Shown: piece after piece, positions 16,521-61,999 of the stretch
How positions within the stretch are numbered: position 1 is the stretch's first letter
How the letters are laid out: the number at the start of each line of letters is the position of its first letter
NCBI GenBank assembly: GCA_048882325.1
Contig: JBHLRS010000009.1
Location: forward strand, 1 to 64,000
DNA length: 64,000 nucleotides
Source of the DNA: Candidatus Thorarchaeota archaeon
Lineage (GTDB): Archaea; Asgardarchaeota; Thorarchaeia; Thorarchaeales; Thorarchaeaceae
Direction: 5' to 3'
Notes under the pieces: generated by a model
What the model saw: only the letters and a program-made list of their open reading frames with translations
Databases searched by the model: none
Told to the model about the DNA's origin: nothing
Translations under genes and position numbers: made by a program

Positions 16521-17768
16521 TTGGAGAAACCGCTCGATAAATTGTTTGACAAGTTCTTACAGGGTCAGGCTATCTTCAGGGACAGAACAGCTCTGAGACC
16601 CACTTATGTACCCGATAGTCTTCCTTACAGAGACGACCAGATGAGTAGGATTGGGTCCATTCTAGGGCCCGCGCTCAGAGGTGCTCCACCATCCAATATT
16701 CTTTGTTATGGAAAAACGGGCACTGGTAAGACTGTTGTAGCAAGATATGTATTAGACATGCTTGTGAGCAAGGCTAAGGACAGTGGAATTACCGCTCCAT
16801 TGACGGCTTTTGTGAACTGCAGGATAGTAGGCACTAATTACAGAGTCTTGAAGAAATTATGTGACCAGGTTAAAGCAACAATGCCTGATGGATCTGAAGT
16901 CCCCTTCACCGGACTTCCCACAGATGAGATTCGAGAAGTCCTGAAGAACGAACTAGATTCTGATTCAAATATCCTTACAGTGGTGCTTGATGAGGTGGAT
17001 AGTTTATTGAAACGCGATGCTGGACAAGGTAATGATATTCTCTATGGATTGACTAGAATGAATGGAGAGCTGGAAAACAGCAGGATATCAATTATAGGAA
17101 TAAGCAATGATCTGAAATTCAAGGAGATGCTTGATCCTAGGGTTCTGTCAACTTTAGGTGAGGAGGAGGTCATATTCTCGCCTTACAATGCTGTAGAGTT
17201 GAAAGGAATTTTGAATCAAAGGGTTGAACTGGCTTTTAACAAAACAGCTATTGGGGACGAAGGTGTGATTAATTTGGTAGGAGCTCTGGCTGCACAGGAG
17301 CATGGAGATGCACGTAGAGCTCTCGATCTTTTGAGGACTGCAGGGGAGCTGGCTGAGAGAAGAGGAGATAGTACTGTTACTCAAGAACATGTTCGCGAGG
17401 CACAGAAAGTCATTGAACGAGACACAATAACTGAAACAGTGAAAACTCTCCCAATGCAGTCGAAAGCTGTTTTGTTTGCGGTCTATGTCTTGGCTAGTAA
17501 AGGTCAACGCGACATTTTCACAGGTGAGTGTTATAACATCTATTCGGAGATTGCAAAGGCACTCTCTATAGACACATTGACTCAGAGACGTGTTTCTGAT
17601 TTGATTTCTGAATTAGATATGTTGGGGCTGATTAATACTACAGTGATATCCAAGGGGCGATATGGACGGACTAAAAAGATCAAGCTAGCTGTGAGTAAGA
17701 AACAGATTGGTGTCATCCTAGATGATGACACTCGTCTGAGCAAGGTCGCCCAAGAGATACTTGACTGA
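16521..17768 (+). CDS. cdc6: Orc1/Cdc6 replication initiator (origin-associated type)
   Basis: YGKTGTGKT, VLDEVD, HGDARRALDLLR, SKGRYGRTK wing. Confidence 0.95.
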   Translation: MEKPLDKLFDKFLQGQAIFRDRTALRPTYVPDSLPYRDDQMSRIGSILGPALRGAPPSNILCYGKTGTGKTVVARYVLDMLVSKAKDSGITAPLTAFVNCRIVGTNYRVLKKLCDQVKATMPDGSEVPFTGLPTDEIREVLKNELDSDSNILTVVLDEVDSLLKRDAGQGNDILYGLTRMNGELENSRISIIGISNDLKFKEMLDPRVLSTLGEEEVIFSPYNAVELKGILNQRVELAFNKTAIGDEGVINLVGALAAQEHGDARRALDLLRTAGELAERRGDSTVTQEHVREAQKVIERDTITETVKTLPMQSKAVLFAVYVLASKGQRDIFTGECYNIYSEIAKALSIDTLTQRRVSDLISELDMLGLINTTVISKGRYGRTKKIKLAVSKKQIGVILDDDTRLSKVAQEILD

Positions 17769-33542: not shown

Positions 33543-35057
33543 CTATTTGTCAGATTTCTTCACAGCATCGGACAGGCTTTTGATTATACCAGTTGGTTCA
33601 AATTTCCGCTGACGTATTTTGACAAATGTGGGAACTGCTACCGTTTCGCCAACAAAAAGCGATTCACCAATTTCAAGAGTAGTGATCGAGTCCAATGAAG
33701 AGCGATCGATACCCTCACTTGACTTACCAATATGGTCCAGATCGTATGGATTTGTGCATCTGAAGATGGCTTGATTGCTACATTGACTTAGAACTGTCGT
33801 GGAGAGTTTCACCGGTCTTTGAGAGATTAAGCAGAGAAGTGCGTAGAACTTTCTACCTTCTCGTGCAATTGTTTCAATACGACTCTTTGGTAAGGCGAGC
33901 TCGTGTCGGCTCTCAGGACAAAACTGGTGAGCCTCCTCAAGAACTAGTAAGAACGGTGGAATCTGCTCACGTCGCCTTAGATGGAGAAGTTCACTAGCCA
34001 AGTGGGAAACGATGATTTGCTTCTTCTTAAGACTAATAAAATCGCTTAGGTCAATCAAGGTGATTTTCCCTGGCCTCACTACTGTATTGATGTTTGGAAC
34101 AGCCTCTTTCCCGAAAAGTCCGGTTTCATCAAGATTGATCAACCAGCCAGAAAGTGCCTCACGTGTGTTCTTGCTGATTTTTTCATCACTCTGGACATAC
34201 TCTACAACATCTGCTAACGTGTATCCCTCTCTCAGTGAGCTCTTCATCTCTGACACAACTCTGCGCAAGTCTCTGACTTGAATTGAACTCATGTCTGATA
34301 CAAGAGACCCTATCGCTTCTGCAGAAAGCGTTTGGACAGGTATCTGAAAATGTGAACCTCTGATATGCTCAATCTCAAATTGTCCTTTCGGTAATCCAAG
34401 GGCTTCAGGAGTGATATCCTGCAGATATGTGTATTCACCATGTACATCTACGACAACCACCGAAAGTCGACCTCTTTCCTTAAGCCGGGAGAGTAGCTCC
34501 TCCAGAAGAACTGACACAAAATAGGACTTGCCAGCACCGCTCATTGCTAGTATTGCTAGATGTTTGGAAAGTAAACGGTCAAGTGATGGGGCAAACTCCA
34601 GATTTTGATATGCTAACCGACCAAGATGAAGACCTTTTTCCAAGTCTAGTTTCAGAAAGGAGGCAAGAATATCTTCGTCAACTCTTCTAACAACAGCTCC
34701 TGGAGACACTGCAAAGTACGGTCGAACGGTTCGACCTTCACTCCATAGACCCAAAACCCTTGCCATAGCAATTGTGTACTGCCATCGGTCTGTTGGAAAG
34801 ATCGATCGCAGTGGTTCGCCCCTTGATTGGTATTCGCGAACTGCTTCTGCATGTTGGTAATATCGGTTTGTACGTATTAAATCTTGAACCCTCGCTATCA
34901 CTGTACCTGCATCAGTGACAACTGAAATGAATTCCCCACGGCGTGCAACAATTTCTTTAGGTCCACCTTCGAGCACAAATGAAAATTCCATTACACTTGG
35001 ACCAGCATCAGTTGAAACAACGGTTCCAAGTCGTGTGGTTGATGAAAATTCAGCCAT
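33543..35057 (-). CDS. herA: HerA helicase/translocase
   Basis: HAS barrel, AMSGAGKS, DVHGEY, LEEAHQF, AREGRK, SQRP; adjacent to nurA. Confidence 0.92.
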   Translation of the reverse strand: MAEFSSTTRLGTVVSTDAGPSVMEFSFVLEGGPKEIVARRGEFISVVTDAGTVIARVQDLIRTNRYYQHAEAVREYQSRGEPLRSIFPTDRWQYTIAMARVLGLWSEGRTVRPYFAVSPGAVVRRVDEDILASFLKLDLEKGLHLGRLAYQNLEFAPSLDRLLSKHLAILAMSGAGKSYFVSVLLEELLSRLKERGRLSVVVVDVHGEYTYLQDITPEALGLPKGQFEIEHIRGSHFQIPVQTLSAEAIGSLVSDMSSIQVRDLRRVVSEMKSSLREGYTLADVVEYVQSDEKISKNTREALSGWLINLDETGLFGKEAVPNINTVVRPGKITLIDLSDFISLKKKQIIVSHLASELLHLRRREQIPPFLLVLEEAHQFCPESRHELALPKSRIETIAREGRKFYALLCLISQRPVKLSTTVLSQCSNQAIFRCTNPYDLDHIGKSSEGIDRSSLDSITTLEIGESLFVGETVAVPTFVKIRQRKFEPTGIIKSLSDAVKKSDK

Positions 35058-35060
35058 TTG

Positions 35061-36224
35061 TTAGCCTCCAAAAGGATTTCTTGAACGTCTTTTCTCAAGT
35101 GTCAAATAGGTGAGCCCAGATAAAGCCATGAGACGGTCGATGATTAATCGTGTTTCATTGGTAGTAATCTTTGCCCTTGCATCAGCCTCAAGAATTGGAG
35201 TAGGCACTCCGTACTCAGGATGCTGTGAAGCTAAGGGGAGTATCGCAGAAAGAGCTTTATCCAGTTTGTCTGTGACTGCATCATCGTCCTCAGCTGAAAG
35301 ATACTCCACTCTTATTGGTAAATCATCTCTTGCAGTCTTCAGATATGTGACCCAGATTGATGATGCCCAGGCAGACAAATCATCACTCGGAGAATTTGTA
35401 TTAAGAACAAGCTCTGATGAGTATCGAAATGCAAAGGACCTTTCTCCTTCCTCCAAGAATGTATCAAGGAGATCACAGTCTCGAGATATTTTGAGTAACC
35501 ATCTATAGTCAACTCCTTGCATCATTTCGAAGATTTCTGGTTTTCGAACAATGTGAGGAAGAATTTCACCCATTATCGTAGCTACACGTGTTGATCTACT
35601 ATCTTTGACAATACCGATCAACGTTGTACCTTTCTTCCGGGCTTTGTGATAGAGTTGTTTGTAAAGAGATAGAACCTCTTGGAATTTCTCATATACAATA
35701 GAACCGGTTTGGGGACGGTCTCGAGGGTGATAGAATAAGGATCCATCCAATAGTATCAAATCCGTGTGATACTCTTCAAGAACTGATAGTGTGACTCTGA
35801 GTTCTGCTGCAATTCGTTCTAGTGATGCAAACTGGTCCAATTCAATACTAGACAATGTTAACATTAGTGGACTTATTTTTGGTTCAGGAAATGCATCAGG
35901 ATAGAAATCAACAATTGGACCATCTTCTGGTCCAAATTGGAAAATAACAGCAACCCCCCGCGTCAAGACCAAGTCCATCGATCTAAATCGTTTTCTGACC
36001 AAACCCCCATCAATCCCCGCAATTCTGAGACCTGATAGATTTGTAGGTTCTATCTTCGTGTAGAACTGTTTGTCAACAATATTCGACGCAACCGCTGGGA
36101 ATTTGCCTAGGTCAATTTTACTTCTGACATTTCTGAGGACATCGCCAAAGCGTTCTCTTGTCACCTCGATATGCTCAATCTCCTCAACCAATTTTGATAG
36201 TAACTTATCGAGGTTTCTTTCCAC
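35061..36224 (-). CDS. nurA: NurA nuclease
   Basis: AGIDGG, LLDGSL, GIVKDS, YGVPTPI. Confidence 0.88.
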   Translation of the reverse strand: MERNLDKLLSKLVEEIEHIEVTRERFGDVLRNVRSKIDLGKFPAVASNIVDKQFYTKIEPTNLSGLRIAGIDGGLVRKRFRSMDLVLTRGVAVIFQFGPEDGPIVDFYPDAFPEPKISPLMLTLSSIELDQFASLERIAAELRVTLSVLEEYHTDLILLDGSLFYHPRDRPQTGSIVYEKFQEVLSLYKQLYHKARKKGTTLIGIVKDSRSTRVATIMGEILPHIVRKPEIFEMMQGVDYRWLLKISRDCDLLDTFLEEGERSFAFRYSSELVLNTNSPSDDLSAWASSIWVTYLKTARDDLPIRVEYLSAEDDDAVTDKLDKALSAILPLASQHPEYGVPTPILEADARAKITTNETRLIIDRLMALSGLTYLTLEKRRSRNPFGG

Positions 36225-47672: not shown

Positions 47673-50600
47673 TCACATCACAAAAGCGGAAACATTGTCA
47701 TCCATTGTTTTTACTATTAGATTTCTTGGAGTGGTTTCACTTTCTTCAAGGTACTCAGACGCAGTGAGAACGCATACCACTTTGCTAGATTTGCATGTTC
47801 TACAGGCTATTTCACTATGTAAATTGAGAAGTGTATTCAGTTGCTGCTGATTTGGAAATATAACATAAGAAGTATCACCAACACAAAGGTCATAGTATCC
47901 ATGATTTTTGGACACTTTGGAATGATGTTTCTTCAGCTCTTCCTCAATGGAGGTGATTGCCTTTTCCTTTAGATGCTTCAAGACTGATGAATTAACTAGC
48001 CAGAGTCCTTCTGTGAGCTCCATGAATTGTGATTCGCCGTTGACACGGAGGGCAATTAAGACCTCATCAGCTAACAGTTCTGTCAGAGCACGCTTCCCTT
48101 CCTCTATGTTTAGTGGAGCGGACCTGCCCTTCAATGACTGAAGAGCTGTAGTTTCTATGAACTCAAGTAGCTCTTCCCATTTGACTTGTCCATTTGATAT
48201 GTCAACTAGGTCTTGAATCAGACCAAACCATAGCCGAATCTGAATCGCTCTATTGGTTGCGGATCCTACACCATGCATAGCTCCAATCAAATCTACTTTT
48301 TCATGTGATTCCTCCTCCACATCCTCTGCTAGCTGAGTCTGGACAATGGAAGCCTCTGACTGACCTGATTTACTCGCTAGTCCATCAATAATTGAATCTA
48401 AGGATCGTGGAAATGCAGAAACGACACTGACCTCATTGAATTCCTCAGATGAGTCCATCAGTTCCCTTAGTTTTGCAGCTGCAACGCTACCTCGTACAAC
48501 CACAATTAGCTCACTTACCCCATTCTGTAGTTTACTCATCTGTCCTCGAATTCTGTCTAGTGTTGAACCGATTGATGATGCTCGTAAGTGTTCAGGAATA
48601 ACTATCACTGCTCTGTCTTCAAGGACTATGTCCGGCCAATCCAGATTGGCTGACATTGAGGAGGTATTGTATTCTATCCCGAGTTTCTCATAGATATATT
48701 CAACAATCACCCGTCTTACAGCACCTAGGGCTTTTCCTGGTAGAGCAAAAACAAATCCTCCATCTACAAGTGCTAATGCTTCTCTTTCAACACTACCCAA
48801 TGATACTAGATTTCGAATCGCTTCTGAAATGTCATCATCCACAACATTAGAGTCAAGTACAGAGAGAAGATTTCGGATTTCACTCTCTGTCGCCCAGCCC
48901 TCTGATGCAAGGAATGCAACAACGTGATTTCCAAGTCTATCTATTCTGTTAAAGACAAGCGTCTGTGCTTTGATATCTTCAACCGCTTCAGTATTATCCA
49001 AGTCACTAGTAATTGCCCCCTCATCCGATACAGTGGATTCGATAACAGAATCGATTTCACTTTCAGTAATGTCATTAGACGGTTGTTCGCTTTGACCCAA
49101 TGTGTCTGGAAATCGTTGAGTGACAATTTCAAAAGTTTCAGTGTCAGGTATACTCATCAAGGCTCTCCCACGTTGTAGACTTCGGAGATACTGTTCTTGA
49201 TCGCTACTCAATGAAAGAAATCTTCCTCCAACATGACTGTCATAGGGTAAGCGAAACACTACCTTGGTAGATGTGTTTGCTAGGATGTTTGTAGAGATGT
49301 TGGGTCTAGTTGAAACTACAATAACACCTTGTCCTGTAGCCCGTTGTAGCATCACCATAGATTCACCAGTAGTTACATCAGCTGCAGAGTGTCTTGTATA
49401 ACTCTCAGGAACAAGATTGCTTGCTTCTTCTAATACAACAACATGATGTAGACCTTCTGTGATACCTCGCTTCATGGCACTGTCGAAGATACGCTTCGCA
49501 ACAAGATTGTAAAGCAATCGAGCAGAATCCATTCCACCAACACGTGCAACATGAGAAAGATCAAGAATTACGCGTTTAGCAAGTAATTCTGAGAACTGAA
49601 CTGATTCACCCTCTTTACCAAGGATTGATCCTAATGGTTCTCTGGTCAAAATCTCCAGACGGTTGATTAAAGCGTCTCTTGTCATATTCCCAGTCCGATC
49701 GTTACCTGATAATTCGTTAATTGCTGATATTAATGATTGAACCGAGTTTCCATGATTTAACGTTTCTGCGACTCGCATCACAGAGTCTCTGAGTAGTTTT
49801 TCCATTGCTGGAGAGAGTTCAGATGAATCACCTCTTTCATTCAATAACTCCTTCAAAATAACAAATGTTGAATGAGCGTGATTCTCATCATCAGCCATCT
49901 CAGGGTCAATAAGGTTAATGGAGAATGAAGTGTCAAGACCAGGTTTCAATACAAGAACTTCTGTTTCACTATGATTGACCAGACCATGATATTCAGACCC
50001 CTTTACGTCAAATATCCACCAAGGTATAGAAGTCTTCATGCTCAGCTGAGCCATAAGATGCTTGACAAGTGTAGTCTTTCCACTGCCAGTTGCTCCTAAG
50101 ATTGCAATATGTTCTCTTAACCAATTCACCTTCAAGCCAACATCAGATAATCGTCGACCTCCGAACACAGTTTTACCAATAACTAGTTCATTGTCCACTA
50201 ACTCTTTTGTGGGGACTGGAAAAACGGGAGCATGTTTCGGAGTGATTACAGGTAGCTGTTGAATTGGTGTATTCACAAGGGACGACAATTTTGCAATGTG
50301 AATTCGCTGACGTTTCAAATGGCGGCGAGTCAGTATTTTGAAGACATTCCGTTTTGAGTACTTATGATATTTCAGCTTGATGGAGTTTCCACCACCCCAT
50401 ATCGAGTGGATCAACCCTATTACTCCATCCATATCCACATCCATGCGGCTGTTTTTGGTCGGGCTTACTTTGAAATATACTGTAGAGTCAAACCATCCAG
50501 CTCCATCCTGAATTTCTTCATAACGGGTCACCAATCTTTTCTTTGCTGCATGGTCTTGTAATGACTCCTCTTTTCGCTTCTCTTTTGATTGAATGCTCCT

Positions 50601-51473
50601 CCATTGATTTTCAAGTGAACGCTTTTCTTTTCCAGGTTTAGCTGAAGAGAATACACAGGTCATACTTGTGGTATATCCCTGTTTAAGAGATGTCGAAAGG
50701 TATGTTCCAATCTGAGAAGCTTCTAGAGTTGGGAATACCCGTGGTTGTCCTTGCAGAGCTAGGAATCCCAGTAAGTCATTCCCATGCTTGATTTTCAGTT
50801 CTCTCGATTCGAGGCAAATCCCATTTATGTGAGTAAGAGCAACAGATTCGAGAGAGTCACCCTCTAGAAGCTTTAATTCCACATTATTGAGAGATGACAA
50901 AAGAATTGCTTCAGTCCGGGTTGCCTCTCTTCTCAATATCTCCTGTATCTGTTTTGACGTGTGACCGGTTGCTGTGATAAAGATACGTAGGAATGGCTCT
51001 CCATTTGTAACTCCAACCTCAAAAGCCATTGTTATTGATTTGTCCATTCCTGCTCTCATCGCAAGTAACATAGTTTCATTGTATCTCGGTTTTCCATTCT
51101 CATCTAGATACACCGAACCAGAAACTGACATAATATCAAGACAACATGTCCCAATCACAAAGTCATCGAGCTGAACAAGTAGTGTGCTGTCCTGAATCGA
51201 TACTGAAGGATTCTGAAGACGAACTTTCTTCATAGTCAGGTAAGACCCAGTTATAACTGGTATAAGACACACAATCACTTCAACCATTATTTTTTGAGGG
51301 ATAAAGGGTTGACTGAACAGTCCAATCAATGGTAGGAGGTAGACTAGTAGTAGATACAATCCCGATGCTATTGTACTAAACACCCAGACTATAGCTAACC
51401 ATGATTTTGGTCGTCTATGCAAATCATGAGAAGCCACAGCTGTGTTCTCTCGTAGGGAAATACGAAATGGCAT
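47673..51473 (-). CDS. membrane-anchored VirB4/HerA-FtsK family ATPase with long C-terminal extension
   Basis: Two N-terminal TMs, HIAILGATGSGKT, FDVKGSEY, VVLEEA, STRP. Confidence 0.82.
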   Translation of the reverse strand: MPFRISLRENTAVASHDLHRRPKSWLAIVWVFSTIASGLYLLLVYLLPLIGLFSQPFIPQKIMVEVIVCLIPVITGSYLTMKKVRLQNPSVSIQDSTLLVQLDDFVIGTCCLDIMSVSGSVYLDENGKPRYNETMLLAMRAGMDKSITMAFEVGVTNGEPFLRIFITATGHTSKQIQEILRREATRTEAILLSSLNNVELKLLEGDSLESVALTHINGICLESRELKIKHGNDLLGFLALQGQPRVFPTLEASQIGTYLSTSLKQGYTTSMTCVFSSAKPGKEKRSLENQWRSIQSKEKRKEESLQDHAAKKRLVTRYEEIQDGAGWFDSTVYFKVSPTKNSRMDVDMDGVIGLIHSIWGGGNSIKLKYHKYSKRNVFKILTRRHLKRQRIHIAKLSSLVNTPIQQLPVITPKHAPVFPVPTKELVDNELVIGKTVFGGRRLSDVGLKVNWLREHIAILGATGSGKTTLVKHLMAQLSMKTSIPWWIFDVKGSEYHGLVNHSETEVLVLKPGLDTSFSINLIDPEMADDENHAHSTFVILKELLNERGDSSELSPAMEKLLRDSVMRVAETLNHGNSVQSLISAINELSGNDRTGNMTRDALINRLEILTREPLGSILGKEGESVQFSELLAKRVILDLSHVARVGGMDSARLLYNLVAKRIFDSAMKRGITEGLHHVVVLEEASNLVPESYTRHSAADVTTGESMVMLQRATGQGVIVVSTRPNISTNILANTSTKVVFRLPYDSHVGGRFLSLSSDQEQYLRSLQRGRALMSIPDTETFEIVTQRFPDTLGQSEQPSNDITESEIDSVIESTVSDEGAITSDLDNTEAVEDIKAQTLVFNRIDRLGNHVVAFLASEGWATESEIRNLLSVLDSNVVDDDISEAIRNLVSLGSVEREALALVDGGFVFALPGKALGAVRRVIVEYIYEKLGIEYNTSSMSANLDWPDIVLEDRAVIVIPEHLRASSIGSTLDRIRGQMSKLQNGVSELIVVVRGSVAAAKLRELMDSSEEFNEVSVVSAFPRSLDSIIDGLASKSGQSEASIVQTQLAEDVEEESHEKVDLIGAMHGVGSATNRAIQIRLWFGLIQDLVDISNGQVKWEELLEFIETTALQSLKGRSAPLNIEEGKRALTELLADEVLIALRVNGESQFMELTEGLWLVNSSVLKHLKEKAITSIEEELKKHHSKVSKNHGYYDLCVGDTSYVIFPNQQQLNTLLNLHSEIACRTCKSSKVVCVLTASEYLEESETTPRNLIVKTMDDNVSAFVM

Positions 51474-51721
51474 CTACATCTTCCTCATCATACTAACTCT
51501 AGACCAAGAGAGATTGTTTTTGGAGTTGAACCATCGTACCTTTGTTGAGCATATGAACACCCCTAAACAAATCATCCAATACTATGCACTCTATAGGAGA
51601 ATAAAAACCCAGAAACAGAATGATGAACTGGTGACGAAACCCTAGAAGAGTGATTTCGGTACCTACCTCTCAAAATCCCTAGGGGGTATAGACAATCAAG
51701 AAATCAGACTGGTTCCCAATA

Positions 51722-53662
51722 ATGTTGCTTGTTCTACTCTTGATATCACTAACTACGTTGACGACTGAACCAATATCTGCAGAGGGCGAGATTGTGGTTG
51801 TTCGAGGAAACACTATCTTAATCACCGTCACACTTCTTCAGAATGGTAGCTTCGGAGAACCAGTACCAGACCAGTGGATACATTTCTTTGACCAGAGCTA
51901 TAACTCGTTCTTAGGTTCTGAAAAGACAGATGCAAACGGTATCGCTTCACTTTCATGGGGCATTCCCATTGATCATGCACTTGGAATGACAACCATCAAT
52001 GCAACATTTTTGGGTAATGAGTCACTGTCACTAGCTCCGTCATATCAATGGAGTGTCTTGACAGTAGTTTCCTCTACAACTATCGAGATTGACCAGGTGC
52101 CTGATTCACTCGCCCCAGGAGATTTCTTATCATTCTTAGTTCACCTGACTGATGACACAGATAGTCCAATTGAGAACGCCTCTGTGAAAGTGTTTAAGGA
52201 TTATACACCTATTGCTGTTGCTAAGACCAACTCATCAGGAGATATTCACTTCAAGATTGATTGCAACAGCACATGGATAACACTAGGAAACAATGACATA
52301 AGAGTTGTATTTGAACAAGATTTGGCAAAGCACCTCAATGGATCTGAGTTTACGTTCATTGTCGATATATCAAAAATACCTACGTTTCTGCTTCCTCATG
52401 GTTGGTATCCAACTAATGTCACTCTTGGTGAATTTGTTGATTTGTATATTGAGCTCTCTGAAACAGCTAATCCCATGCCGAATGAGGCTATCCAAGTCCT
52501 CCTAGATGATTCTCCTCTAGTTCTTGTTACCTCTAACAATTCTGGAATCGCCCGTGCTCTGTTGGATATCGATGAACGATTCACTCTTGGGGTTCATATC
52601 CTGCAATTTTTGTACAATGGTACATCGAGGTACTCTGTATCAAATTACGAATATCCTTTATCTATAACCAGCCCAGCACAGTTGAGCATTGAAGTTCCGG
52701 AATCTGCTTCGATAGGCTCAATCGTCGATCTTGAAATTGCAATTTCGGATTCATTAGGTCGTCCGATTCCTGATTCGCTTATCACACTAGTTGACACTAC
52801 ATCTGATCAGACCTTTACGGTTCCTTCGAGCTCAACTAAAACAGTTATCAATTTTCAATATGTGGTGCAAGGTCCTACCGGCACCCACATTCTCAATGTA
52901 GAAGTGTCAGAGAATCTATTTGTGACGAACGGAAATTGCAGTGCTACCTTTGTTGCATGGTCCAAGCCTGTTATGTTCATTCTCAACGTCAATGTGGATC
53001 ACTATGCCTCTCCCAATCAAGAGATCTTTTTTGAATTACAGATGACTGATTGGAATGGAAATTGTTCCTATAGACCTCTCTATCTTATGTTAGATGGCCA
53101 GGTCTATCTATCAAGAACGACAGGCATAGATGGGAAACTTACTCTTGCTCTTACTGCTCCACTGATTGAAAAGGTGTACAATATATCAATGGTCTATGAG
53201 GGAAATAATACACTCTTTGAAAGTCCAACAAAGCTCGATTATGACCTTCATGTGACTAGTCAAATGCCTGTGCGACTTGAACTCGATTCCTATGAGGTTA
53301 ATGCTGCACGACATGAACTAGATATACGTCTAATATTGAAAGCATTCAATGGCTCTACACTACAAGGAGTGAATGTGAATTTTGTCTGGTTAGATTCACA
53401 CTTCGACTCCCAAACAAGCGATGGGGGATTGGTTATTCTTCATCTTAGAGTTCCTGCAATAAATGGTATCTATGTCTTATACTATGAAATTGAGGACGCA
53501 GCATCAATAGTTCCAACAAATGGAACATACCTGATTGAGATTACGATTTCTGATGTAATGTCACTACAGGGAATTGGTGTTGTTGGTCTAGCAATAGCTC
53601 TTTTTGCTTCAGTTGGAATCTCAGCCGTACCAATCCTAAGACGAAGATATCTTGTAGGATAA
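51722..53662 (+). CDS. exported Ig-like repeat protein with C-terminal TM anchor
   Basis: Signal-like N-terminus, repeated TD.NG.A beta modules, many NxS/T sites, C-terminal TM + RRR. Confidence 0.8.
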   Translation: MLLVLLLISLTTLTTEPISAEGEIVVVRGNTILITVTLLQNGSFGEPVPDQWIHFFDQSYNSFLGSEKTDANGIASLSWGIPIDHALGMTTINATFLGNESLSLAPSYQWSVLTVVSSTTIEIDQVPDSLAPGDFLSFLVHLTDDTDSPIENASVKVFKDYTPIAVAKTNSSGDIHFKIDCNSTWITLGNNDIRVVFEQDLAKHLNGSEFTFIVDISKIPTFLLPHGWYPTNVTLGEFVDLYIELSETANPMPNEAIQVLLDDSPLVLVTSNNSGIARALLDIDERFTLGVHILQFLYNGTSRYSVSNYEYPLSITSPAQLSIEVPESASIGSIVDLEIAISDSLGRPIPDSLITLVDTTSDQTFTVPSSSTKTVINFQYVVQGPTGTHILNVEVSENLFVTNGNCSATFVAWSKPVMFILNVNVDHYASPNQEIFFELQMTDWNGNCSYRPLYLMLDGQVYLSRTTGIDGKLTLALTAPLIEKVYNISMVYEGNNTLFESPTKLDYDLHVTSQMPVRLELDSYEVNAARHELDIRLILKAFNGSTLQGVNVNFVWLDSHFDSQTSDGGLVILHLRVPAINGIYVLYYEIEDAASIVPTNGTYLIEITISDVMSLQGIGVVGLAIALFASVGISAVPILRRRYLVG

Positions 53663-53672
53663 AGACAAGAAG

Positions 53673-53781
53673 TGGTGCTCCGGCCGGGATTCGAACCCGG
53701 GTCGGGGGATCGAGAGTCCCCCATGCTGGGCCGGACTACAGTCGGTATCATTGTAAGGAATATACAATGCTCTACCGGAGC
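53673..53781 (-). tRNA. tRNA-Glu(CTC) with 31-nt intron at 10/11 (53741-53771)
   Basis: GCTCCGG/CCGGAGC, GGGGA-CTCTCGA-TCCCC, TTCGAAT, CCA; D-stem restored on intron removal. Confidence 0.88.
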
Positions 53782-53869
53782 CGTGAATGGATTGCCAGTC
53801 CGGAGCGCGAGAAGGCTCGTTTGGAATTATGCAAATAAGCCTTTCCCCGCAACATGAGGACTAAAGAAT

Positions 53870-54079
53870 CTAAGGTGCACTGAATAATTGAGTTAGACTA
53901 CTCCAACTATCCTGTAATAACTGCAGTAATCCTCCCACAACATCTTGTGCCCACCCTGTGGCTTGAAGGATGACCGCAATAACAATAGAAACTGTGACAA
54001 CTGCAAGCCCAAGGAGCAGACTCTCCTCAACTAGCGGTCCTCCCTGTTCATTACGAATTAAACCATCATCCTTTGTCAA
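53870..54079 (-). CDS. Flp/Tad-like pilin with class III signal peptide
   Basis: IRNEQG|GPLVEE (E at +5) then a hydrophobic helix; TTG start after AAGGTGG; downstream of pilus ATPase. Confidence 0.65.
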   Translation of the reverse strand: MTKDDGLIRNEQGGPLVEESLLLGLAVVTVSIVIAVILQATGWAQDVVGGLLQLLQDSWSSLTQLFSAP

Positions 54080-54144
54080 AGATATCCACCTTGAACTGAT
54101 GTTTTGCTGGTTCCTTTTAAGGTCCCCAAAAGATCTGGACCACT

Positions 54145-55839
54145 CTATGCTTCTGACTTGATGAATTTCATCGGGTGTCCCTTTGACCACATCTCTTCGC
54201 TTATTGTGTGAAAACTCATGGGATTGCTATTTAGGCGGATGATTTCAGTCAGATTCCTTAGAGCTGGAATATGGCTTTTGACCCCGGACTCTCTTGCATG
54301 GTTTAGAAAAGCTCCATCATCTGCCCAGTCCTCATTAATACCTTCGATGGAATCATAGATTTTATTGAGACCTGAGAATACAACTAATCCGTTTACCACC
54401 CTTCGTCGTATTTCTGAGATTTCGCTCACGATTCGTTTAGACTCCCCTGGTTTCGGTCTTTCTAAAGTAACAATGATATCCAAGAGCGCAATGTTGTCTT
54501 CTTGAATTCTATGGCCGAGTTTCCACCTAGAAATAAGACTGGACGCCGACTCGCTGTGACATGTTTGAATAGTACGAAGACCTGCTATAATAGCCTGAAA
54601 AAGGGCGTTGCTGTGTTCTGCAGTCTGAATCTCTCCTAGAATGAGATAGTCTGGCGACCGATGGAGACATTTGATTATTTCATCACTTTTGTTAAATTTC
54701 GTCAATTGCTCATCCATGGGGTCAACTCTGAAACGTACCTGATGGTGATCTTTCTGTGGTCTGCTTTCAATGGCATCTTCAATGTAGATTTTTCTCCACC
54801 ACTTTGGTGTAGTCATATCCAAGGCATTCAACAAAGTTGTTTTTCCAGTACCTGGACCTCCAGTTATAGTAATGTTGAACCTGCATGAAACAGCGAAGAC
54901 TAGAATTGCTGCAACATCAGATGTCATAGTTTCATTCTCTATCAATTCACTAATAGTAAACGGATTGTTCCTCGCTCGACGAATTTCGAGATGTAGTCCA
55001 TCTGGACTTAATGGTGGCATACTTGCAGAGAAACGAAGTGCGGCATCTTGAATACGTATATCCATTTTGAGAGAGGGGTTGCTTCTATCTAGGTGGAGAT
55101 TGCTTTCAGCGCGAATTAGAGTGATAATTTTTGAAACATCCTGCTTATAAAAAGTGAAATCTGTTATACATCTACCATATCGTTGATGATCAAAATAGAT
55201 TGGTACTCCAGGACTATCAAGGTATATTTCCTCTACCCAATCATCATGGATAAGGGGCATAAGTACGCCAAGGATGTTTCGACGATGAGCGACGATCTCA
55301 GCGAGTCGCATCCGAGTTGCTTCATTCATCTCAGGAATTAAGTCCAAGATGTGAATGGAAATATCCTTGATTGCCTGATTTAATTTCTGTGTTATTCCCA
55401 CCTTCAAAGAGTTAGTTCTGTTTCCAGATTGGAAAGGTTTCTCAATCAAATCTTCAACAAGTGAGTTTTCTAGTGCGGTTCTGACCAATGGAACAGTTGT
55501 GTATCGTGCTTGATTATTTTCTGTCTGATGAAAAACAGATAGATGAGAGCCCACTTTGTAAATTGCTAAGATATCGTCTAACATGTCAACTAGGTGCATG
55601 TTAGAACCAATAAAGACAGTTTCCCAACCCTCAGTTCGCCATGATGGTTCAGGTAATTTCAGACTCTTCAGAGTACAGAAGTGAAACAAACCTCTTCCAG
55701 TTTCAACTATGATAATCTGTGATTTTTCGTTTCCAGATTCCTTGATATGGTTGAGCCTCTGACAACCAAAATCACTCCTCTGAGAACACTTTTCACAACG
55801 TCCAACAGGACATTGGACAACATGGATATCTGAATTCAA
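54145..55839 (-). CDS. type II/IV secretion (TadA/CpaF/VirB11-family) ATPase
   Basis: GGPGTGKTT, IEDAIE, LHRSPDYLILGEI, TCHS. Confidence 0.9.
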   Translation of the reverse strand: MNSDIHVVQCPVGRCEKCSQRSDFGCQRLNHIKESGNEKSQIIIVETGRGLFHFCTLKSLKLPEPSWRTEGWETVFIGSNMHLVDMLDDILAIYKVGSHLSVFHQTENNQARYTTVPLVRTALENSLVEDLIEKPFQSGNRTNSLKVGITQKLNQAIKDISIHILDLIPEMNEATRMRLAEIVAHRRNILGVLMPLIHDDWVEEIYLDSPGVPIYFDHQRYGRCITDFTFYKQDVSKIITLIRAESNLHLDRSNPSLKMDIRIQDAALRFSASMPPLSPDGLHLEIRRARNNPFTISELIENETMTSDVAAILVFAVSCRFNITITGGPGTGKTTLLNALDMTTPKWWRKIYIEDAIESRPQKDHHQVRFRVDPMDEQLTKFNKSDEIIKCLHRSPDYLILGEIQTAEHSNALFQAIIAGLRTIQTCHSESASSLISRWKLGHRIQEDNIALLDIIVTLERPKPGESKRIVSEISEIRRRVVNGLVVFSGLNKIYDSIEGINEDWADDGAFLNHARESGVKSHIPALRNLTEIIRLNSNPMSFHTISEEMWSKGHPMKFIKSEA

Positions 55840-55908
55840 CTAGTAGAGCACCTCATGATTTCTACATCTTATTCAGACAAATCCTACATAATCTCCTAGA
55901 CATTCAAG

Positions 55909-56946
55909 TCACTGGGCTTGTGATACTTCGATGACCTTTTTCATCATTCCAAAGTGATCTCTGATACTATACTCGGCCACCTCGGTTGCAATTGAAGCAA
56001 GCTTTTGTGTTAGCACGGCTCTCCTTCCATATTGTATCGCAATCAGTCGGTCACTCGCATAGGCAGCTGAAACTGTAAATATGAACGGATTTCTTCCGCC
56101 GCGTTTTGAAGCAGGTATTATTTTGAGAACTTCGAGTATCTTGTTTCTAAGAGCGTTCTCATAGTCCTTTGGTTCCCAACCTCGTGATTGAACCTTACTG
56201 ACTACTCTTGGGTTGTTCATCAACATTGAAAGCACTCTTGGAACATAGTCCTCTGGTTTTCGGATTTCCGGTGAGTAGCCTGTGAGCGACTTGAGCCTGA
56301 GTGCTTCTCGCACAATTGCTCTCACATTGACTCGGTGTCCGCATTTTTCAAACACATCAGCTATTTCATCAAGTGTTATCGGAGCCTCCTCTTTGAACTC
56401 CCTTACAGCCATGAGAAGACACACAGCAATCAACAGTATGTTATTACTGACGTTTCCTGCTGCTTCATTCACCACTTTCTTGTATAGATACGCAGTCCGA
56501 TCGCGAACTTGCTCATTGATCATGAGTAGCTTTGACACATGATTGAGAGTTCTAAGAGCTCTGTATTTTGCCTCATTCTTGCCAATTCTGATTCTGGTGC
56601 TGTATATTGTTTTCAGCCGCTTGAATTTCTTCTGCATTCTTCCTGAGAGTGCCTGTCCTTGTGCATCTTGAAAATACCGATCTTTATGGAAGCCAATGTA
56701 GCTGCCAAGACCGTCCACAATATGCATTCGGTTTCCTAATGATACATACATAGTTGCATCAGGGGAATCGCCAGTGGGTCGTTCGCCCATCTGATATGTA
56801 GGCAAAACGTATTCTCTAGAAAGCACCAAACCGCATTCAGCACATACTATGTGTCCCTGACTAGTGACCAAAAAACCACTACAGTCAGGACAGGATTTTG
56901 AATTCGTTAAACGAGATTCACATGTTCCATCAGTCAAAAACCACAC
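55909..56946 (-). CDS. divergent TFB/TFIIB paralogue
   Basis: CPDC..CAECGLV Zn ribbon, GLGSYI, two cyclin-like repeats ending LTQK..VAEYSIR. Confidence 0.8.
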   Translation of the reverse strand: MWFLTDGTCESRLTNSKSCPDCSGFLVTSQGHIVCAECGLVLSREYVLPTYQMGERPTGDSPDATMYVSLGNRMHIVDGLGSYIGFHKDRYFQDAQGQALSGRMQKKFKRLKTIYSTRIRIGKNEAKYRALRTLNHVSKLLMINEQVRDRTAYLYKKVVNEAAGNVSNNILLIAVCLLMAVREFKEEAPITLDEIADVFEKCGHRVNVRAIVREALRLKSLTGYSPEIRKPEDYVPRVLSMLMNNPRVVSKVQSRGWEPKDYENALRNKILEVLKIIPASKRGGRNPFIFTVSAAYASDRLIAIQYGRRAVLTQKLASIATEVAEYSIRDHFGMMKKVIEVSQAQ

Positions 56947-57103
56947 CCATTAGAGATGTGCACAATCATTCCTAACTAAGTTTCAGATACCAATTATACA
57001 TTCACAGAGAATAACAATCTGTTCAAGTAGACTTTGACTGATATTGAGCGGTCTTTGTCGGTCTGGTCAGAAAGAGAGGTGACCGAAAGTAATCTTAATG
57101 GGA

Positions 57104-57469
57104 TTACATAAAAGCCAGAAAGAACTTCTCTGAGTTGAAAACGTTACTCTGACTTGGAGTTGGTTTTCCTAGTGTGAAGACTAGTCGCAATCCACCTACG
57201 GATCCAATTACTTCAAGACCATTTTTCTCAGTCTTTTTGAAGACGCCACTCTCTACATAGAGCTTTGCTTGTTCACCTTTTGTAATTGGCTTAGAATCGA
57301 TGATAACAGTGATTGAATCATTAGCATTCAGTGTGTCACAAAGTGCATCCGGAAGCTCGAGTGAGAGTGTTGCTCCATCACTTTTCGAGGAAACCTTCAA
57401 TAACTTCAATCTTCTCGTTTCCGTTTCCTCAACAGAGTCAATGACTGCAGTCTTAAGCCTAATTACCAT
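57104..57469 (-). CDS. rpoG: RNA polymerase subunit Rpo8 (G / Rpb8 homologue)
   Basis: OB-fold pattern with GSVGGLRL (SxGGL motif), 121 aa. Confidence 0.7.
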   Translation of the reverse strand: MVIRLKTAVIDSVEETETRRLKLLKVSSKSDGATLSLELPDALCDTLNANDSITVIIDSKPITKGEQAKLYVESGVFKKTEKNGLEVIGSVGGLRLVFTLGKPTPSQSNVFNSEKFFLAFM

Positions 57470-57591
57470 AAATGATCCACCTCTATATGCTAGAGTCTAT
57501 TTTTCACGGCATGCCTTTGCGAATTAAACCTACCGTTGAAACCATGTGCCGTTTTTTAGGAAGCATAATGACGATTTTCTGGTGTAGCTAA

Positions 57592-59382
57592 GTGAATCGG
57601 AAAGTGGTAGCACTCGCCCCCCTCTCTTTGCTTCTAGTCACATGTCTTGTTGTTCCAGTTTCAGCATTCTACTTTGACTTTCAGTCCTTCGAAACTGACA
57701 AGTTGGTATATGAAGTTGGAGAAACGATTAACATGGTCGCAAAGTTAATCGCAGATTTCAGTGACGAGGGGTGGTGCAACGTATCATTTGGAGTTGTTAC
57801 AGATCTTGGTCCTTCTTTTGCGGAAGGATACTCTATTCCTCCATCTCCATTGGTCCGTTACCTAAATTCGTCATATACAATTCTTCCAGAGCATACTTCG
57901 CCCACTGAAACAGGTGTACAAGCTTTTGTCATCTTTACTGTTCAGATTTTCGATGTAGGAGAACAAAGTGAGGGTGATAACATCCTAATCACAATTAACA
58001 GAGGACATCTCAATGCTTTTCCACAAATTCCTCTCATTGCGCAGTATGGATTGAATACATCACTCCCATTGAAAATTGCTAGTATTCATAATAGTGATGT
58101 TGTCTACTCTGGCGAGTCTGTTACATTGCATGTGGAGAATTCAACTTCACATACTGTGTTACATACTAATGTAACCACAACTTCCGAAGGAATGGTACAC
58201 CTCAATTGGAGTGACTCGTTTGGTGCTCCTGGTCTGTATAATCTGACTGTTTCCAGCGATGGAAATGAAGACTTTCTACCACTAGCTGATTCATTCGAAC
58301 TAACAGTTCTTCCAGCGCCTTCAAATTTAACCGCAATCTCTACACCCGGCACAGTATATTGTCAAGCACCTGATGGTAGTCATGTTCAACTTGCTGAGAT
58401 TATAGTTGAGCATACGGATGTAGATTCAATCCCTATCAATGATAGTCTAGTACGATGGACTGCAAGCTTTGGATCTGGTTCGTTGGCCAAATTGGGTGCT
58501 GGTCTGTATTCTGGTATGATTCCCTTCAATACAAGTCCAGGGTCTTATACCATCAATATCACATCCACTAATCCTCAATATCAGAGTAGTGGAACTGAAG
58601 TCATTGTGGATGTCCTAGCAAATATATTGCAATTCACTCCAGTACAGTCATCTTGGAATGTGACAAGAGGTGACAATGTGACTGTTGAGTTCCTTCTGGA
58701 ATCAACCCTTGATTGGAATCAATCAATACAACTAGATTTCATAGATGAAAAAACGCAGTTCTCAGTAACATCAAGTGTCCTGCCGGGCATTCCTAAGTTT
58801 CAACAAATCCCAATCTGGCACAACATCTCTGTAGGACAACATATCGTTGATATTTCCTCAACAAGTGAGTACTATGAGTTTACTACTACTCCTCAAATTG
58901 AATTGGTTGCTATTGGGACAATGAATGTTTCAATGTTGATACAAACTGTATACTATAGTGAAACATTAGATTTCAATCTAGATATCGTTGATGATGATAA
59001 TCAACTGGTTTCAAATGCTGAGGTTTCTATTTTCTGTGATGAGGATATCACGTCTTTTGCGACCACCGGTTATGTCAATACGAGTGCAAACCAAACTGTA
59101 GGATTGCCGTTATGGATTCAACTAGGCATACACAATCTTACCTTTATTGTCAACAGTCAATACTATGAGTCGATTATCTATATCGTAACCATCAAAGTCT
59201 GGATGCGGACTAACCTCACCATTGTTATATCAAGTGATTCGAATTCAATTGCTGAAGATACTCAGTTTGACATCACACTAAGTATCTCATCTGGATTAAT
59301 CATGAGTCCTCCACCAATTTTGTGTAATGGAGTTACCTCTACAATACCTTTCACAGCTCGACTCACTTCATTTGACAATTGA
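57592..59382 (+). CDS. exported Ig-like repeat protein
   Basis: Signal peptide MNRK..PVSA, TDKLVYEVGE motif, beta-rich, NxS/T sites. Confidence 0.78.
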   Translation: MNRKVVALAPLSLLLVTCLVVPVSAFYFDFQSFETDKLVYEVGETINMVAKLIADFSDEGWCNVSFGVVTDLGPSFAEGYSIPPSPLVRYLNSSYTILPEHTSPTETGVQAFVIFTVQIFDVGEQSEGDNILITINRGHLNAFPQIPLIAQYGLNTSLPLKIASIHNSDVVYSGESVTLHVENSTSHTVLHTNVTTTSEGMVHLNWSDSFGAPGLYNLTVSSDGNEDFLPLADSFELTVLPAPSNLTAISTPGTVYCQAPDGSHVQLAEIIVEHTDVDSIPINDSLVRWTASFGSGSLAKLGAGLYSGMIPFNTSPGSYTINITSTNPQYQSSGTEVIVDVLANILQFTPVQSSWNVTRGDNVTVEFLLESTLDWNQSIQLDFIDEKTQFSVTSSVLPGIPKFQQIPIWHNISVGQHIVDISSTSEYYEFTTTPQIELVAIGTMNVSMLIQTVYYSETLDFNLDIVDDDNQLVSNAEVSIFCDEDITSFATTGYVNTSANQTVGLPLWIQLGIHNLTFIVNSQYYESIIYIVTIKVWMRTNLTIVISSDSNSIAEDTQFDITLSISSGLIMSPPPILCNGVTSTIPFTARLTSFDN

Positions 59383-60576: not shown

Positions 60577-60787
60577 CTGATTTTCGTCAGATTTAAGGGA
60601 GGATAATTAATTATATTCTTGGCGAGCGATGATTGCGATGACCCCTATGAGTCAGAATTGACGATGATATGGATCTTGAGTTAGGAGCTCGCCATTACTT
60701 TCGGTAACCTCCCCTTTTATCATACATTTAATCGTACGCTCCGCAAATGCTTTTAAGGTGCCTCAGCGAAATTGCATTTGGACTGTC

Positions 60788-61999
60788 ATGCCGCACGACT
60801 ATGTTGAAGATGAACTCAGTAGGCGTAGTGTCTTCAAATCTGAACAATTCCTATCGATAGACTATGTGCCAGAGAGTCTTCCCCATCGACAGTCCGAGAT
60901 TAGAACACTTGTTCAAAGTTTCAAGACTTTGATCAGTTCACCGGGGCGCACTAGTCACAAGTTCATCATTGAAGGTCCTGTGGGAACAGGGAAGACAGCG
61001 GTGGCTAAGCGGTTTTCTGAACAGATGATTCAAGCTGCAAAGCGGAGAAATATCAGACTCCACAGTATCCATATTAACTGCCGTGTTAACAAGACCGCAT
61101 ATCTCGTTTTTCTTAGAGCTCTAAGGGAGTTCAAACCGAAATTTCCTAGACGTGGTCATTCTCCTGACGAGTTACTACAGATGCTAGTTGAAGTCCTTGA
61201 TGAGGAGGATCGCTATCTCCTTCTGATTCTTGACGAACTTGATTACTTCATTAGGCAAAGGGGATCAGACATTCTCTATGACCTCACAAGACTAATGGAT
61301 GACCGACTAAATGCCACACAGCGCCTCTCAATAATAGGAATTGGTCGTAAGATTCCTCTTGATGATGAAATTCTGGATTCTAGTACACGTAGTACGCTCC
61401 AGCGTAATGTCCTCCGTTTCTCGAGGTATAATCGCGATGCGCTTTCTGACATCCTCACCGACCGTGTAGATATGGCATTTGAGAGTAAGGCAGTCATGGA
61501 TGAAACGATTCAAGTAATCTGTGATATTGCAGCTGAACATGGTGATGCACGATATGCAATTGAACTCCTCTGGCGTGCAGGAAAACGTGCAGATCGTGAC
61601 CGAGTAGATGTTGTAATTCCTGACTATGCCCGTCGTGCAAAAGCTGACACACATCCAGAACTCAGAAAAGAGATTTTTGCTGCATTGCCAACACAACACA
61701 AACTTCTGCTCCTAGCTGCAGCAAGACAGCTTAGGGAAATTCGTAGTGCCTATGTCACCATAGGCGAAGTCGAAGAGATGTATCGTACAATTTGTGAAGA
61801 GTATTATGAAGAACCTAGAGCTCATACTCAGATTTGGGAATGGGTACAAGATCTTCACTCTCATGGTATAATTGATACGAAAAAATCAGGGACAGGACAA
61901 AGAGGACAGACAACTCTCATAGGCTTTTCAGACGTTCCAGCTGAGATGTTGGAGCAATTTCTCTCAGGATTACTTGATACATCTAAGGAGGCTGTGTGA
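60788..61999 (+). CDS. cdc6: second Orc1/Cdc6 paralogue
   Basis: GPVGTGKT, ILDELD, HGDARYAIELL, SGTGQRGQTT wing. Confidence 0.93.
   Translation: MPHDYVEDELSRRSVFKSEQFLSIDYVPESLPHRQSEIRTLVQSFKTLISSPGRTSHKFIIEGPVGTGKTAVAKRFSEQMIQAAKRRNIRLHSIHINCRVNKTAYLVFLRALREFKPKFPRRGHSPDELLQMLVEVLDEEDRYLLLILDELDYFIRQRGSDILYDLTRLMDDRLNATQRLSIIGIGRKIPLDDEILDSSTRSTLQRNVLRFSRYNRDALSDILTDRVDMAFESKAVMDETIQVICDIAAEHGDARYAIELLWRAGKRADRDRVDVVIPDYARRAKADTHPELRKEIFAALPTQHKLLLLAAARQLREIRSAYVTIGEVEEMYRTICEEYYEEPRAHTQIWEWVQDLHSHGIIDTKKSGTGQRGQTTLIGFSDVPAEMLEQFLSGLLDTSKEAV

Follow-up and report, generated by a model that had tools for sequence, protein, structure and literature searches.

Introduction

No known organisms are more closely related to eukaryotes than the Asgard archaea, whose envelope machines and transcription factor repertoire are both poorly understood. 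The type IV pilus-like subclade 4D was reported in 2016 from Pyrobaculum and Thermoproteus by Makarova, Koonin and Albers; it comprises an ATPase with a Cys-rich N-terminus, a protein with 4–5 transmembrane helices, a TFIIB homologue and RPB8, encoded in or beside the operon, and has no pilin, and its describers proposed a transcription-related role for this uncharacterised locus (PMC4858521). A 2026 survey in PLoS Genet detected 4D-specific components in 17 Asgard genomes and regarded them as scattered remnants that are unlikely to act together (PMC13705601). In Sulfolobales, Ups pili and Ced DNA import are placed under TFB3 (van Wolferen 2016; PMC6101594; PMC11823120; PMC11868833), and CedD is a DNA-import ATPase of that system (PMC11823120). 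Activators of the TFB3 type are further marked by induction upon DNA damage. Here we analyse a 64-kb stretch of contig C9 from a Thorarchaeota metagenome-assembled genome (hereafter the window), in which the genes for the RNA polymerase subunit Rpo8, a paralogue of transcription factor B (TFB), a type IV pilus-type ATPase and a prepilin candidate form a minus-strand core that spans positions 57469 to 53870.

The evidence tips modestly towards reading this stretch as an Asgard-wide rpo8/TFB/ATPase/TadC/prepilin module, in a form of 4D, which lies beside a pair of genes found only in Thorarchaeota (encoding a HerA-type ATPase and an immunoglobulin (Ig)-like protein) and the gene of a second surface protein. 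Components of 4D that were reported from Asgard genomes as scattered remnants (PMC13705601) are here contiguous and widespread, and are accompanied by TadC and a prepilin candidate. The near-universal and complete TFB paralogue is tied to the only clearly scoring pilus-type ATPase, which makes promoter-class specialisation by a TFIIB-family factor testable.

Results

Linkage of the TFB paralogue and the pilus-type ATPase across Asgard archaea

To place the locus, we used a sample of 101 Asgard genomes, 42 of them of high quality, with families labelled by f-numbers (f1 is the Thor family). The pilus-type ATPase was present in all 42 high-quality genomes and the TFB paralogue in 41 of the 42, usually as a single copy. 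Both genes lie on one contig within 12.5 kb of each other in 66 of the 79 genomes that hold both, and within 3.5 kb in 50 of these 79, and the linkage spans 15 of 19 families. The gap between the two genes is 69 bp in the window. In several lineages the two open reading frames (ORFs) overlap or are only 15–35 bp apart, suggesting that they are co-transcribed. Shine-Dalgarno-like sites, which are expected before the internal genes of an operon, precede the ATPase and pilin ORFs.

Outside Thorarchaeota, TadC (often as two half-size ORFs) and then a small prepilin usually follow 3′ of the ATPase gene. The rpo8 gene adjoins the TFB paralogue in f1, f3, f8 and f12, and is not adjacent to it in f16 or f19. 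The conservation of the gene set in relatives, as proposed in a preliminary description of this DNA, is thus seen for one part of the set: the TFB/ATPase/pilin unit is Asgard-wide, but the full-length HerA-type ATPase and the surface proteins were seen beside it in the Thor family only. A protein homology search gave only Asgard sequences among the matches listed. A distant metagenome contig of unknown taxon, from a scan with a Nitrososphaerota-labelled family member, showed the same gene order as the Asgard loci, with a degenerate prepilin motif and extra pilin-like proteins that have an N-terminal transmembrane helix.

Rpo8 and a complete TFB paralogue

The TFB paralogue matches the Pfam families TFIIB and Zn_Ribbon_TF. 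Its structural model, with a predicted local distance difference test score (pLDDT) of 88.5, combines a Zn ribbon with a linker and two cyclin folds. By fold it is most similar to full-length TFIIB as seen in pre-initiation complexes and to the core of Pyrococcus TFB (TMt 0.79). The linker holds a family-specific conserved block, VDGLGSYI. Besides this paralogue the genome encodes four canonical TFBs, which score ~50 bits in comparison with it, against 180–266 bits for orthologues from other Asgard families. The profile of the paralogue is nearer to TFIIB/TFB than to Brf1 or Brf2; a Brf/Rrn7-like identity was rejected because profile and fold both favour TFIIB/TFB.

In the alignment, R329 is invariant and lies within the helix SIRDHF; we take it to be the retained arginine of the helix that reads the TFB-recognition element (BRE). 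Canonical TFB has TIRNRY in this BRE-reading helix, and the altered residues may give the paralogue a changed promoter preference. The paralogue is 66–96% identical across the Thor loci. Three long members of the family, P0067 (850 amino acids, aa), P0047 (2330 aa) and P0074 (1103 aa), carry fused leucine-rich repeats or extended unassigned regions.

The assignment of Rpo8 (121 aa) comes from its fold: the top 50 Foldseek matches of its AlphaFold model (pLDDT 93) in the PDB are all Rpb8 or Sulfolobus Rpo8 (TM 0.73–0.78). A profile of 14 Rpo8 orthologues had S. pombe Rpb8 as its sole PDB sequence match, and the Pfam search with the protein gave no match. A tblastn search shows one copy of rpo8 in the genome.

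Components of a type IV filament machine

Each of the four core parts of a type IV filament machine is encoded in the genome, the pilin as a candidate. The pilus-type ATPase (564 aa) matches Pfam T2SSE with an E value of 3e-21 (75.9 bits against a cut-off of 24.9, and 76.2 bits in the genome-wide scan), and the only other ORF of the genome to pass this cut-off is a weak one, on C76, with 37.5 bits. The best NCBIfam match is the TadA family TIGR03819, at 104 bits against a cut-off of 373, and FlaI, at 80 bits, is also below its cut-off. Its nearest solved structures are afGspE (2OAP), FlaI and CpaF, and the Walker A, Walker B and His boxes are intact in the alignment. A cluster of Cys residues at the N-terminus is kept in the Thor sequences and is lacking from several other Asgard orthologues. 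The orthologues in other Asgard loci range from 472 to 741 aa and have variable N-terminal extensions.

The prepilin candidate starts at a TTG codon at position 54079, behind the ribosome-binding site GGTGGA and inside the ORF 53870–54190 (−). Its leader, MTKDDGLIRNEQG, is followed by GPLVEESLLLGLAVV..., which contains one transmembrane helix and a short C-terminal helix, and a cleavage-type motif, NEQG↓GPLVEE (the arrow marks the site), precedes the hydrophobic helix. It is the one ORF with a prepilin motif in the genome. The motif [KR]G↓[SG]PL[VLM]EE[GSA]LL recurs 3′ of the ATPase and TadC genes in other Asgard loci.

TadC, which had been listed as missing, is indeed not encoded beside the module, and none was found within 10 kb of it in any of the Thorarchaeota loci; the genome does carry a single recognisable TadC (T2SSF) gene elsewhere, on contig C10, scoring 39.7–44 bits and above the cut-off. 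An A24 prepilin peptidase (Peptidase_A24, 163 aa, 32 bits and above the cut-off) is encoded on contig C42 and has no methyltransferase domain. The TadC gene on contig C10 (locus L106, 8211–11982) lies between genes for a 469-aa protein with a signal peptide, a C-terminal transmembrane anchor and an RRRR tail, and a 223-aa polytopic protein, and this neighbourhood is located just downstream of Nre. In one Asgard locus outside Thorarchaeota, a 406-aa ORF that looks like an IS200/IS605 TnpB lies between the two TadC halves (L115, 8107–9327).

A possible dedicated TFB for a filament-type module

These components suggest how the module might work. The A24 peptidase would cut the 13-residue leader of the prepilin candidate after Gly, and the helical subunit of ~56 aa would then be built by the ATPase and TadC into a thin filament of the Tad/Flp kind or a pseudopilus. 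The TFB paralogue would dock on RNA polymerase through its ribbon and on the TATA-binding protein and DNA through its two cyclin folds, and could serve as the dedicated initiation factor for the module and perhaps for a wider envelope regulon. A TFB dedicated to the pilus-type module is a reasonable reading. In Thorarchaeota, the neighbouring pair would be a hexameric translocase of the HerA/FtsK type, anchored in the membrane, and an anchored Ig-like protein from a divergent gene.

Several observations weigh against the Asgard-wide filament module with its own TFB. The TFB paralogue is near-universal, single-copy and better conserved than the ATPase (44–70% identity to the window copy across the Thor loci), so that a core role in transcription fits it at least equally well. 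The two genes are unlinked in f7, f14 and f22. The 69-aa ORF is a Flp-like prepilin candidate by motif and position only, and a Pfam search gave no match to a pilin family, including Flp_Fap or class-III-signal, even at an E value of 10. A shared promoter motif had been anticipated; in the four intergenic regions, aligned from 12 Thor loci, no common BRE/TATA-like word was apparent on inspection by eye, with no statistical test, and each of the four upstream regions has strongly conserved blocks of its own. Lastly, in two Thor genera, represented by loci L150 (G042) and L151 (G080), local inversions split the pilin gene from the ATPase gene and rpo8 from the TFB gene, and all seven genes (the core, the HerA-type ATPase and the two surface proteins) nevertheless stay within ~17 kb, which makes a functional link specific to Thorarchaeota possible. 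Orc1/Cdc6 and TruA are interleaved among the seven genes in both of these loci, so the inversions are not decisive.

Other readings of the core module

An unlikely reading, and yet the one among the alternatives that survives best, follows the idea of Makarova and colleagues: the type IV pilus-like parts would no longer build a filament but work with the TFB paralogue and Rpo8 in a pathway related to transcription, perhaps as a machine in the membrane on which the TFB paralogue is held, or from which it is released, upon an envelope signal. The rpo8–TFB–ATPase linkage in f1, f3, f8, f12 and Thermoproteales (PMC4858521) agrees with this idea, as do the overlapping or nearly abutting TFB and ATPase ORFs of several lineages, the strong conservation and near-universal occurrence of the TFB paralogue, and the variable N-terminal extensions of the ATPase, the Thor Cys cluster included. 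Against it, the Asgard loci retain a recognisable TadC and a prepilin-like substrate whose cleavage motif is of class-III type, and the genome encodes an A24 peptidase; these are the needs of a filament machine. Also against it, fusions of TFB and ATPase are absent among 150 family representatives, and rpo8 is not adjacent in f16 and f19.

We consider it improbable, and more so than the transcription-related pathway, that the module is an ancient unit common to Asgard archaea and Thermoproteales in which a filament-type membrane machine is mechanistically coupled to a dedicated initiation factor. Within this reading, the machine might be a device that senses the envelope or contacts and governs an alternative TFB, instead of a pilus with a regulator. 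Owing to the high conservation and near-universality of the TFB paralogue, coupling of machine and transcription stays an alternative.

Still less credence is given to gene-order inertia, by which rpo8 and the TFB paralogue would be core transcription genes that sit, uncoupled, beside an ancient pilus operon near a replication-origin region. In Thorarchaeota and at several further Asgard loci, Orc1/Cdc6 is encoded a few kb away at most, the TFB paralogue and the ATPase are unlinked in the three families named above, and ORFs that look like Sm-like proteins and tRNA-guanine transglycosylases recur by the TFB paralogue, suggesting a conserved housekeeping neighbourhood. However, the linkage persists over 15 families despite differing surrounding genes, it recurs independently in Thermoproteales (PMC4858521), and the overlapping or closely spaced ORFs suggest co-transcription.

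The Thor-family neighbours and the DNA-exchange reading

All seven ORFs named in the preliminary description are present where it placed them. Its co-orientation of rpo8, TFB paralogue, pilus ATPase and pilin also holds, with all four on the minus strand and the pilin standing as a candidate by motif and position. The description of the large ATPase as VirB4/CedB-like is correct at the level of the superfamily and not beyond it. This ATPase has two N-terminal transmembrane helices and a central DUF87/HerA domain (Pfam, E 1e-15); its best curated match is CedD, with 58.6 bits against a cut-off of 600, followed by 28.7 bits against a cut-off of 700 for CedB and 31 bits for VirB4, all of them about a tenth of the cut-offs or less. 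Its sole PDB sequence match is HerA (4D2I), and a protein atlas search with the C-terminal ~480 aa gave no match. A canonical pair of HerA (DUF87, 504 aa) and NurA (387 aa) is encoded elsewhere in the window, at 33543–36224 (−), which indicates that the 1266-aa ATPase is not the repair helicase but a distinct paralogue anchored in the membrane.

Full-length orthologues of the HerA-type ATPase were found in the Thor family only, where they are 41–78% identical to the window copy. In other Asgard families only the ATPase core (about residues 230–790, 26–37% identity) is present, in membrane-anchored proteins of 590–1400 aa that are encoded on other contigs or 42–740 kb away from the pilus ATPase and adjoin PGK, PPDK, ATP synthase or transposase genes. 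The four f3 genomes sampled, which carry the module, gave no match to the HerA-type ATPase.

Surface protein 1 (Ig1) is, as previously described, an anchored Ig-like protein encoded divergently from the large ATPase: it has a Big_3_5 match (E 9e-16), a signal-like N-terminus and a C-terminal transmembrane helix. Its transmembrane helices are located at residues 1 and 607, with Ig-like repeats and a basic tail. It is 26–60% identical to the window copy across the Thor loci and was not seen beside the module outside Thorarchaeota. Surface protein 2 (Ig2) was likewise described as an exported Ig-like protein; it has the signal peptide, but its Ig-like character extends to a weak FlgD_ig match (E 0.002) only. 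It is beta-rich, found in Thorarchaeota only and 32–68% identical to the window copy. The HerA-type ATPase and both surface proteins are Thor-family neighbours and at most candidate members of the module.

The preliminary description had joined all seven genes into one cell-contact and DNA-exchange apparatus, analogous to Ups/Ced, in which the pilus would join cells, the HerA-type ATPase would pump DNA, the Ig-like proteins would act in recognition and the TFB would switch the system on. In each of the ~47 Thor-family loci examined, the seven genes lie side by side, they stay within ~17 kb after the inversions in two genera, and the large ATPase is membrane-anchored with CedD (PMC11823120) as its best curated match. 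However, these ~47 loci retain the whole block and likewise the housekeeping flanks POR (pyruvate:ferredoxin oxidoreductase), Orc1/Cdc6 and TruA, and since these flanks are equally syntenic, adjacency within the Thor family says little. Nor is the set of partners complete: no small ORF with two transmembrane helices resembling VirB2 or CedA1 was found beside the HerA-type gene, and the multi-transmembrane channel resembling CedA or VirB6 did not materialise, with no ORF of at least five transmembrane helices in the window (the search for Ced-type partners covered the window and not the genome as a whole). With relatives of the HerA core outside Thorarchaeota never near the module and beside metabolic genes, no HerA-type match in the four f3 genomes and no CedA/VirB6 or VirB2-like partner, one DNA-exchange apparatus is the least probable of the readings weighed here. 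Attractive as it is, it needs evidence before being taken any further; the DNA-pump-like ATPase is a Thor-only neighbour.

Surroundings and non-coding blocks

The coordinates of the features are collected in Table 1. The tRNA-Glu(CTC) gene sits between the prepilin and Ig1 genes and divides the core module from the Thor-only neighbours. The HerA-type gene is divergent from the Ig1 gene, and the Ig2 gene is divergent from rpo8. The flanks of the locus are housekeeping genes, encoding histone deacetylase, POR, Orc1/Cdc6 and TruA. A mobile-element origin was rejected, given the collinearity of the block over ~47 Thor loci and a composition that does not stand out.

Table 1 Features of the module and its neighbours in the window, and Sm-like-looking ORFs in other Asgard loci.
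Feature	Location	Coordinates	Strand	Basis or remark
rpo8 (RNA polymerase subunit Rpo8/Rpb8)	window	57104..57469	−	fold match
TFB/TFIIB paralogue, divergent, complete	window	55909..56946	−	Pfam, fold
Type IV pilus-type ATPase (T2SSE/VirB11 family)	window	54145..55839	−	Pfam
Flp-like prepilin candidate, 69 aa	window	53870..54079	−	motif and position
tRNA-Glu(CTC)	window	53677..53747	−	ARAGORN; Rfam tRNA match weak
Surface protein 1 (Ig1), 646 aa	window	51722..53662	+	signal, Big_3_5, transmembrane anchor
HerA/FtsK-superfamily ATPase, membrane-anchored, 1266 aa	window	47673..51473	−	DUF87/HerA, two transmembrane helices
Surface protein 2 (Ig2), 596 aa	window	57592..59382	+	signal peptide, weak Ig-like signal
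Conserved non-coding block upstream of rpo8	window	57521..57563	−	near-invariant in 12 Thor loci
Hairpin-capable conserved block just 3′ of rpo8 stop codon	window	57058..57094	−	near-invariant in 12 Thor loci
Sm-like-looking ORF	L109	14794–15225		
Sm-like-looking ORF	L110	12880–13314		
Sm-like-looking ORF	L113	13223–13672		
Sm-like-looking ORF	L114	7570–8049		
Sm-like-looking ORF	L115	3693–4127		
Sm-like-looking ORF	L148	7343–7780		

The conserved block upstream of rpo8 carries a TATA-like box, TTTAAT, and lies between the divergent rpo8 and surface protein 2 genes; it is a putative promoter. The second block, of 37 nt, reads TCGGTCA...TGACCAGACCGA and could form alternative hairpins (TCGGTC with GACC or GACCGA); between rpo8 and the TFB gene, it may serve for termination or attenuation. 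The spacer between these two genes is ~1.2 kb in L079–L082 and L084, which belong to one Thor subgroup, against the usual ~160–180 bp, suggesting an inserted gene or element. In the spacer between the HerA-type and Ig1 genes (51474–51721), ~130 nt are strongly conserved in the Thor loci, including GGGTTTTTATTCTCCTATAGAGTG. A structured RNA in this spacer was rejected, with a fold z-score of +0.96 and no match in the Rfam search.

The window contains two Orc1/Cdc6 genes, at 16521–17768 (+) and 60758–61999 (+), the second of which is ~4 kb from the module. Several further Asgard families (L109, L111, L112, L120 and L121) likewise have an Orc1/Cdc6 homologue no more than a few kb from the TFB paralogue. 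Outside Thorarchaeota, a gene of ~145–160 aa that looks Sm-like, as judged from N-terminal sequence only, adjoins the TFB paralogue (Table 1), and the next ORF in L109, L113 and L148 looks, again from the N-terminal sequence only, like a tRNA-guanine transglycosylase.

Comparison with known systems

The locus resembles the Ups/Ced/TFB3 system in the association of a TFB paralogue with type IV pilus-type genes and in the nearby membrane-bound HerA/FtsK-superfamily ATPase with CedD as its best curated match. It differs from Ced in that the CedB and CedD scores are far under their cut-offs, linkage of the HerA-type gene with the module is confined to Thorarchaeota, and homologues of CedA, CedA1 and CedA2 were not found in the window (the genome was not searched with Ced models). 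Sulfolobus TFB3 is a truncated factor that has no DNA-binding core and acts with TFB1, unlike the complete paralogue described here, with its ribbon, linker and two cyclin folds. Globular heads are a feature of the Ups pilins UpsA/B, whereas the candidate in this locus is Flp-sized. The analogy is therefore supported in part only and fails on those of its features that could be compared, namely the complete TFB, the lack of CedA-type partners and the CedB and CedD scores below cut-off. What stands is that the TFB paralogue, the pilus-type ATPase and the small pilin form a conserved unit, joined by rpo8 in four families; the Ced half is not supported, the HerA-type ATPase being full-length only in Thorarchaeota, with unlinked relatives elsewhere and no CedA/VirB6 or VirB2-like partner.

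Features in common with bacterial Tad/Flp and archaeal Epd-type pili are the TadA/CpaF-like ATPase and the TadC-type platform, the very short pilin candidate with a Gly cleavage site and Glu at +5, and the short A24 peptidase without a methyltransferase domain. Unlike Tad/Flp systems, the locus has a TFB paralogue and rpo8 in the operon and no TadE/F, secretin or other Tad accessory genes, its family scores are all under the curated cut-offs, and the pilin candidate has no Flp_Fap or class-III-signal match in Pfam.

The preliminary description regarded the system as undescribed, but the combination of rpo8, TFIIB and ATPase had been described in Thermoproteales in 2016 (PMC4858521). The module shares with 4D a VirB11/T2SSE-family ATPase with a Cys-rich N-terminus (here in Thorarchaeota only), a TFIIB homologue in the same predicted operon and an RPB8/Rpo8 gene in or beside it. 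Four features set it apart. The ATPase has 564 aa, against 335–343 aa in PAE2119-like proteins, which lack the C-terminal domain (PMC4858521 supplement); TadC (T2SSF) is recognisable here in place of an unassignable protein with 4–5 transmembrane helices; a prepilin candidate is present, whereas 4D was described without a pilin; and the TFB paralogue has two cyclin folds, against one in arCOG05559 as described. Given the shared rpo8–TFIIB–ATPase signature and these four differences, we class the module as a variant related to 4D and do not file it as a member, arCOG05558 and arCOG05559 having been compared by description only. In contrast to the picture drawn by the 2026 survey (PMC13705601), the genes are contiguous here and near-universal in Asgard archaea.

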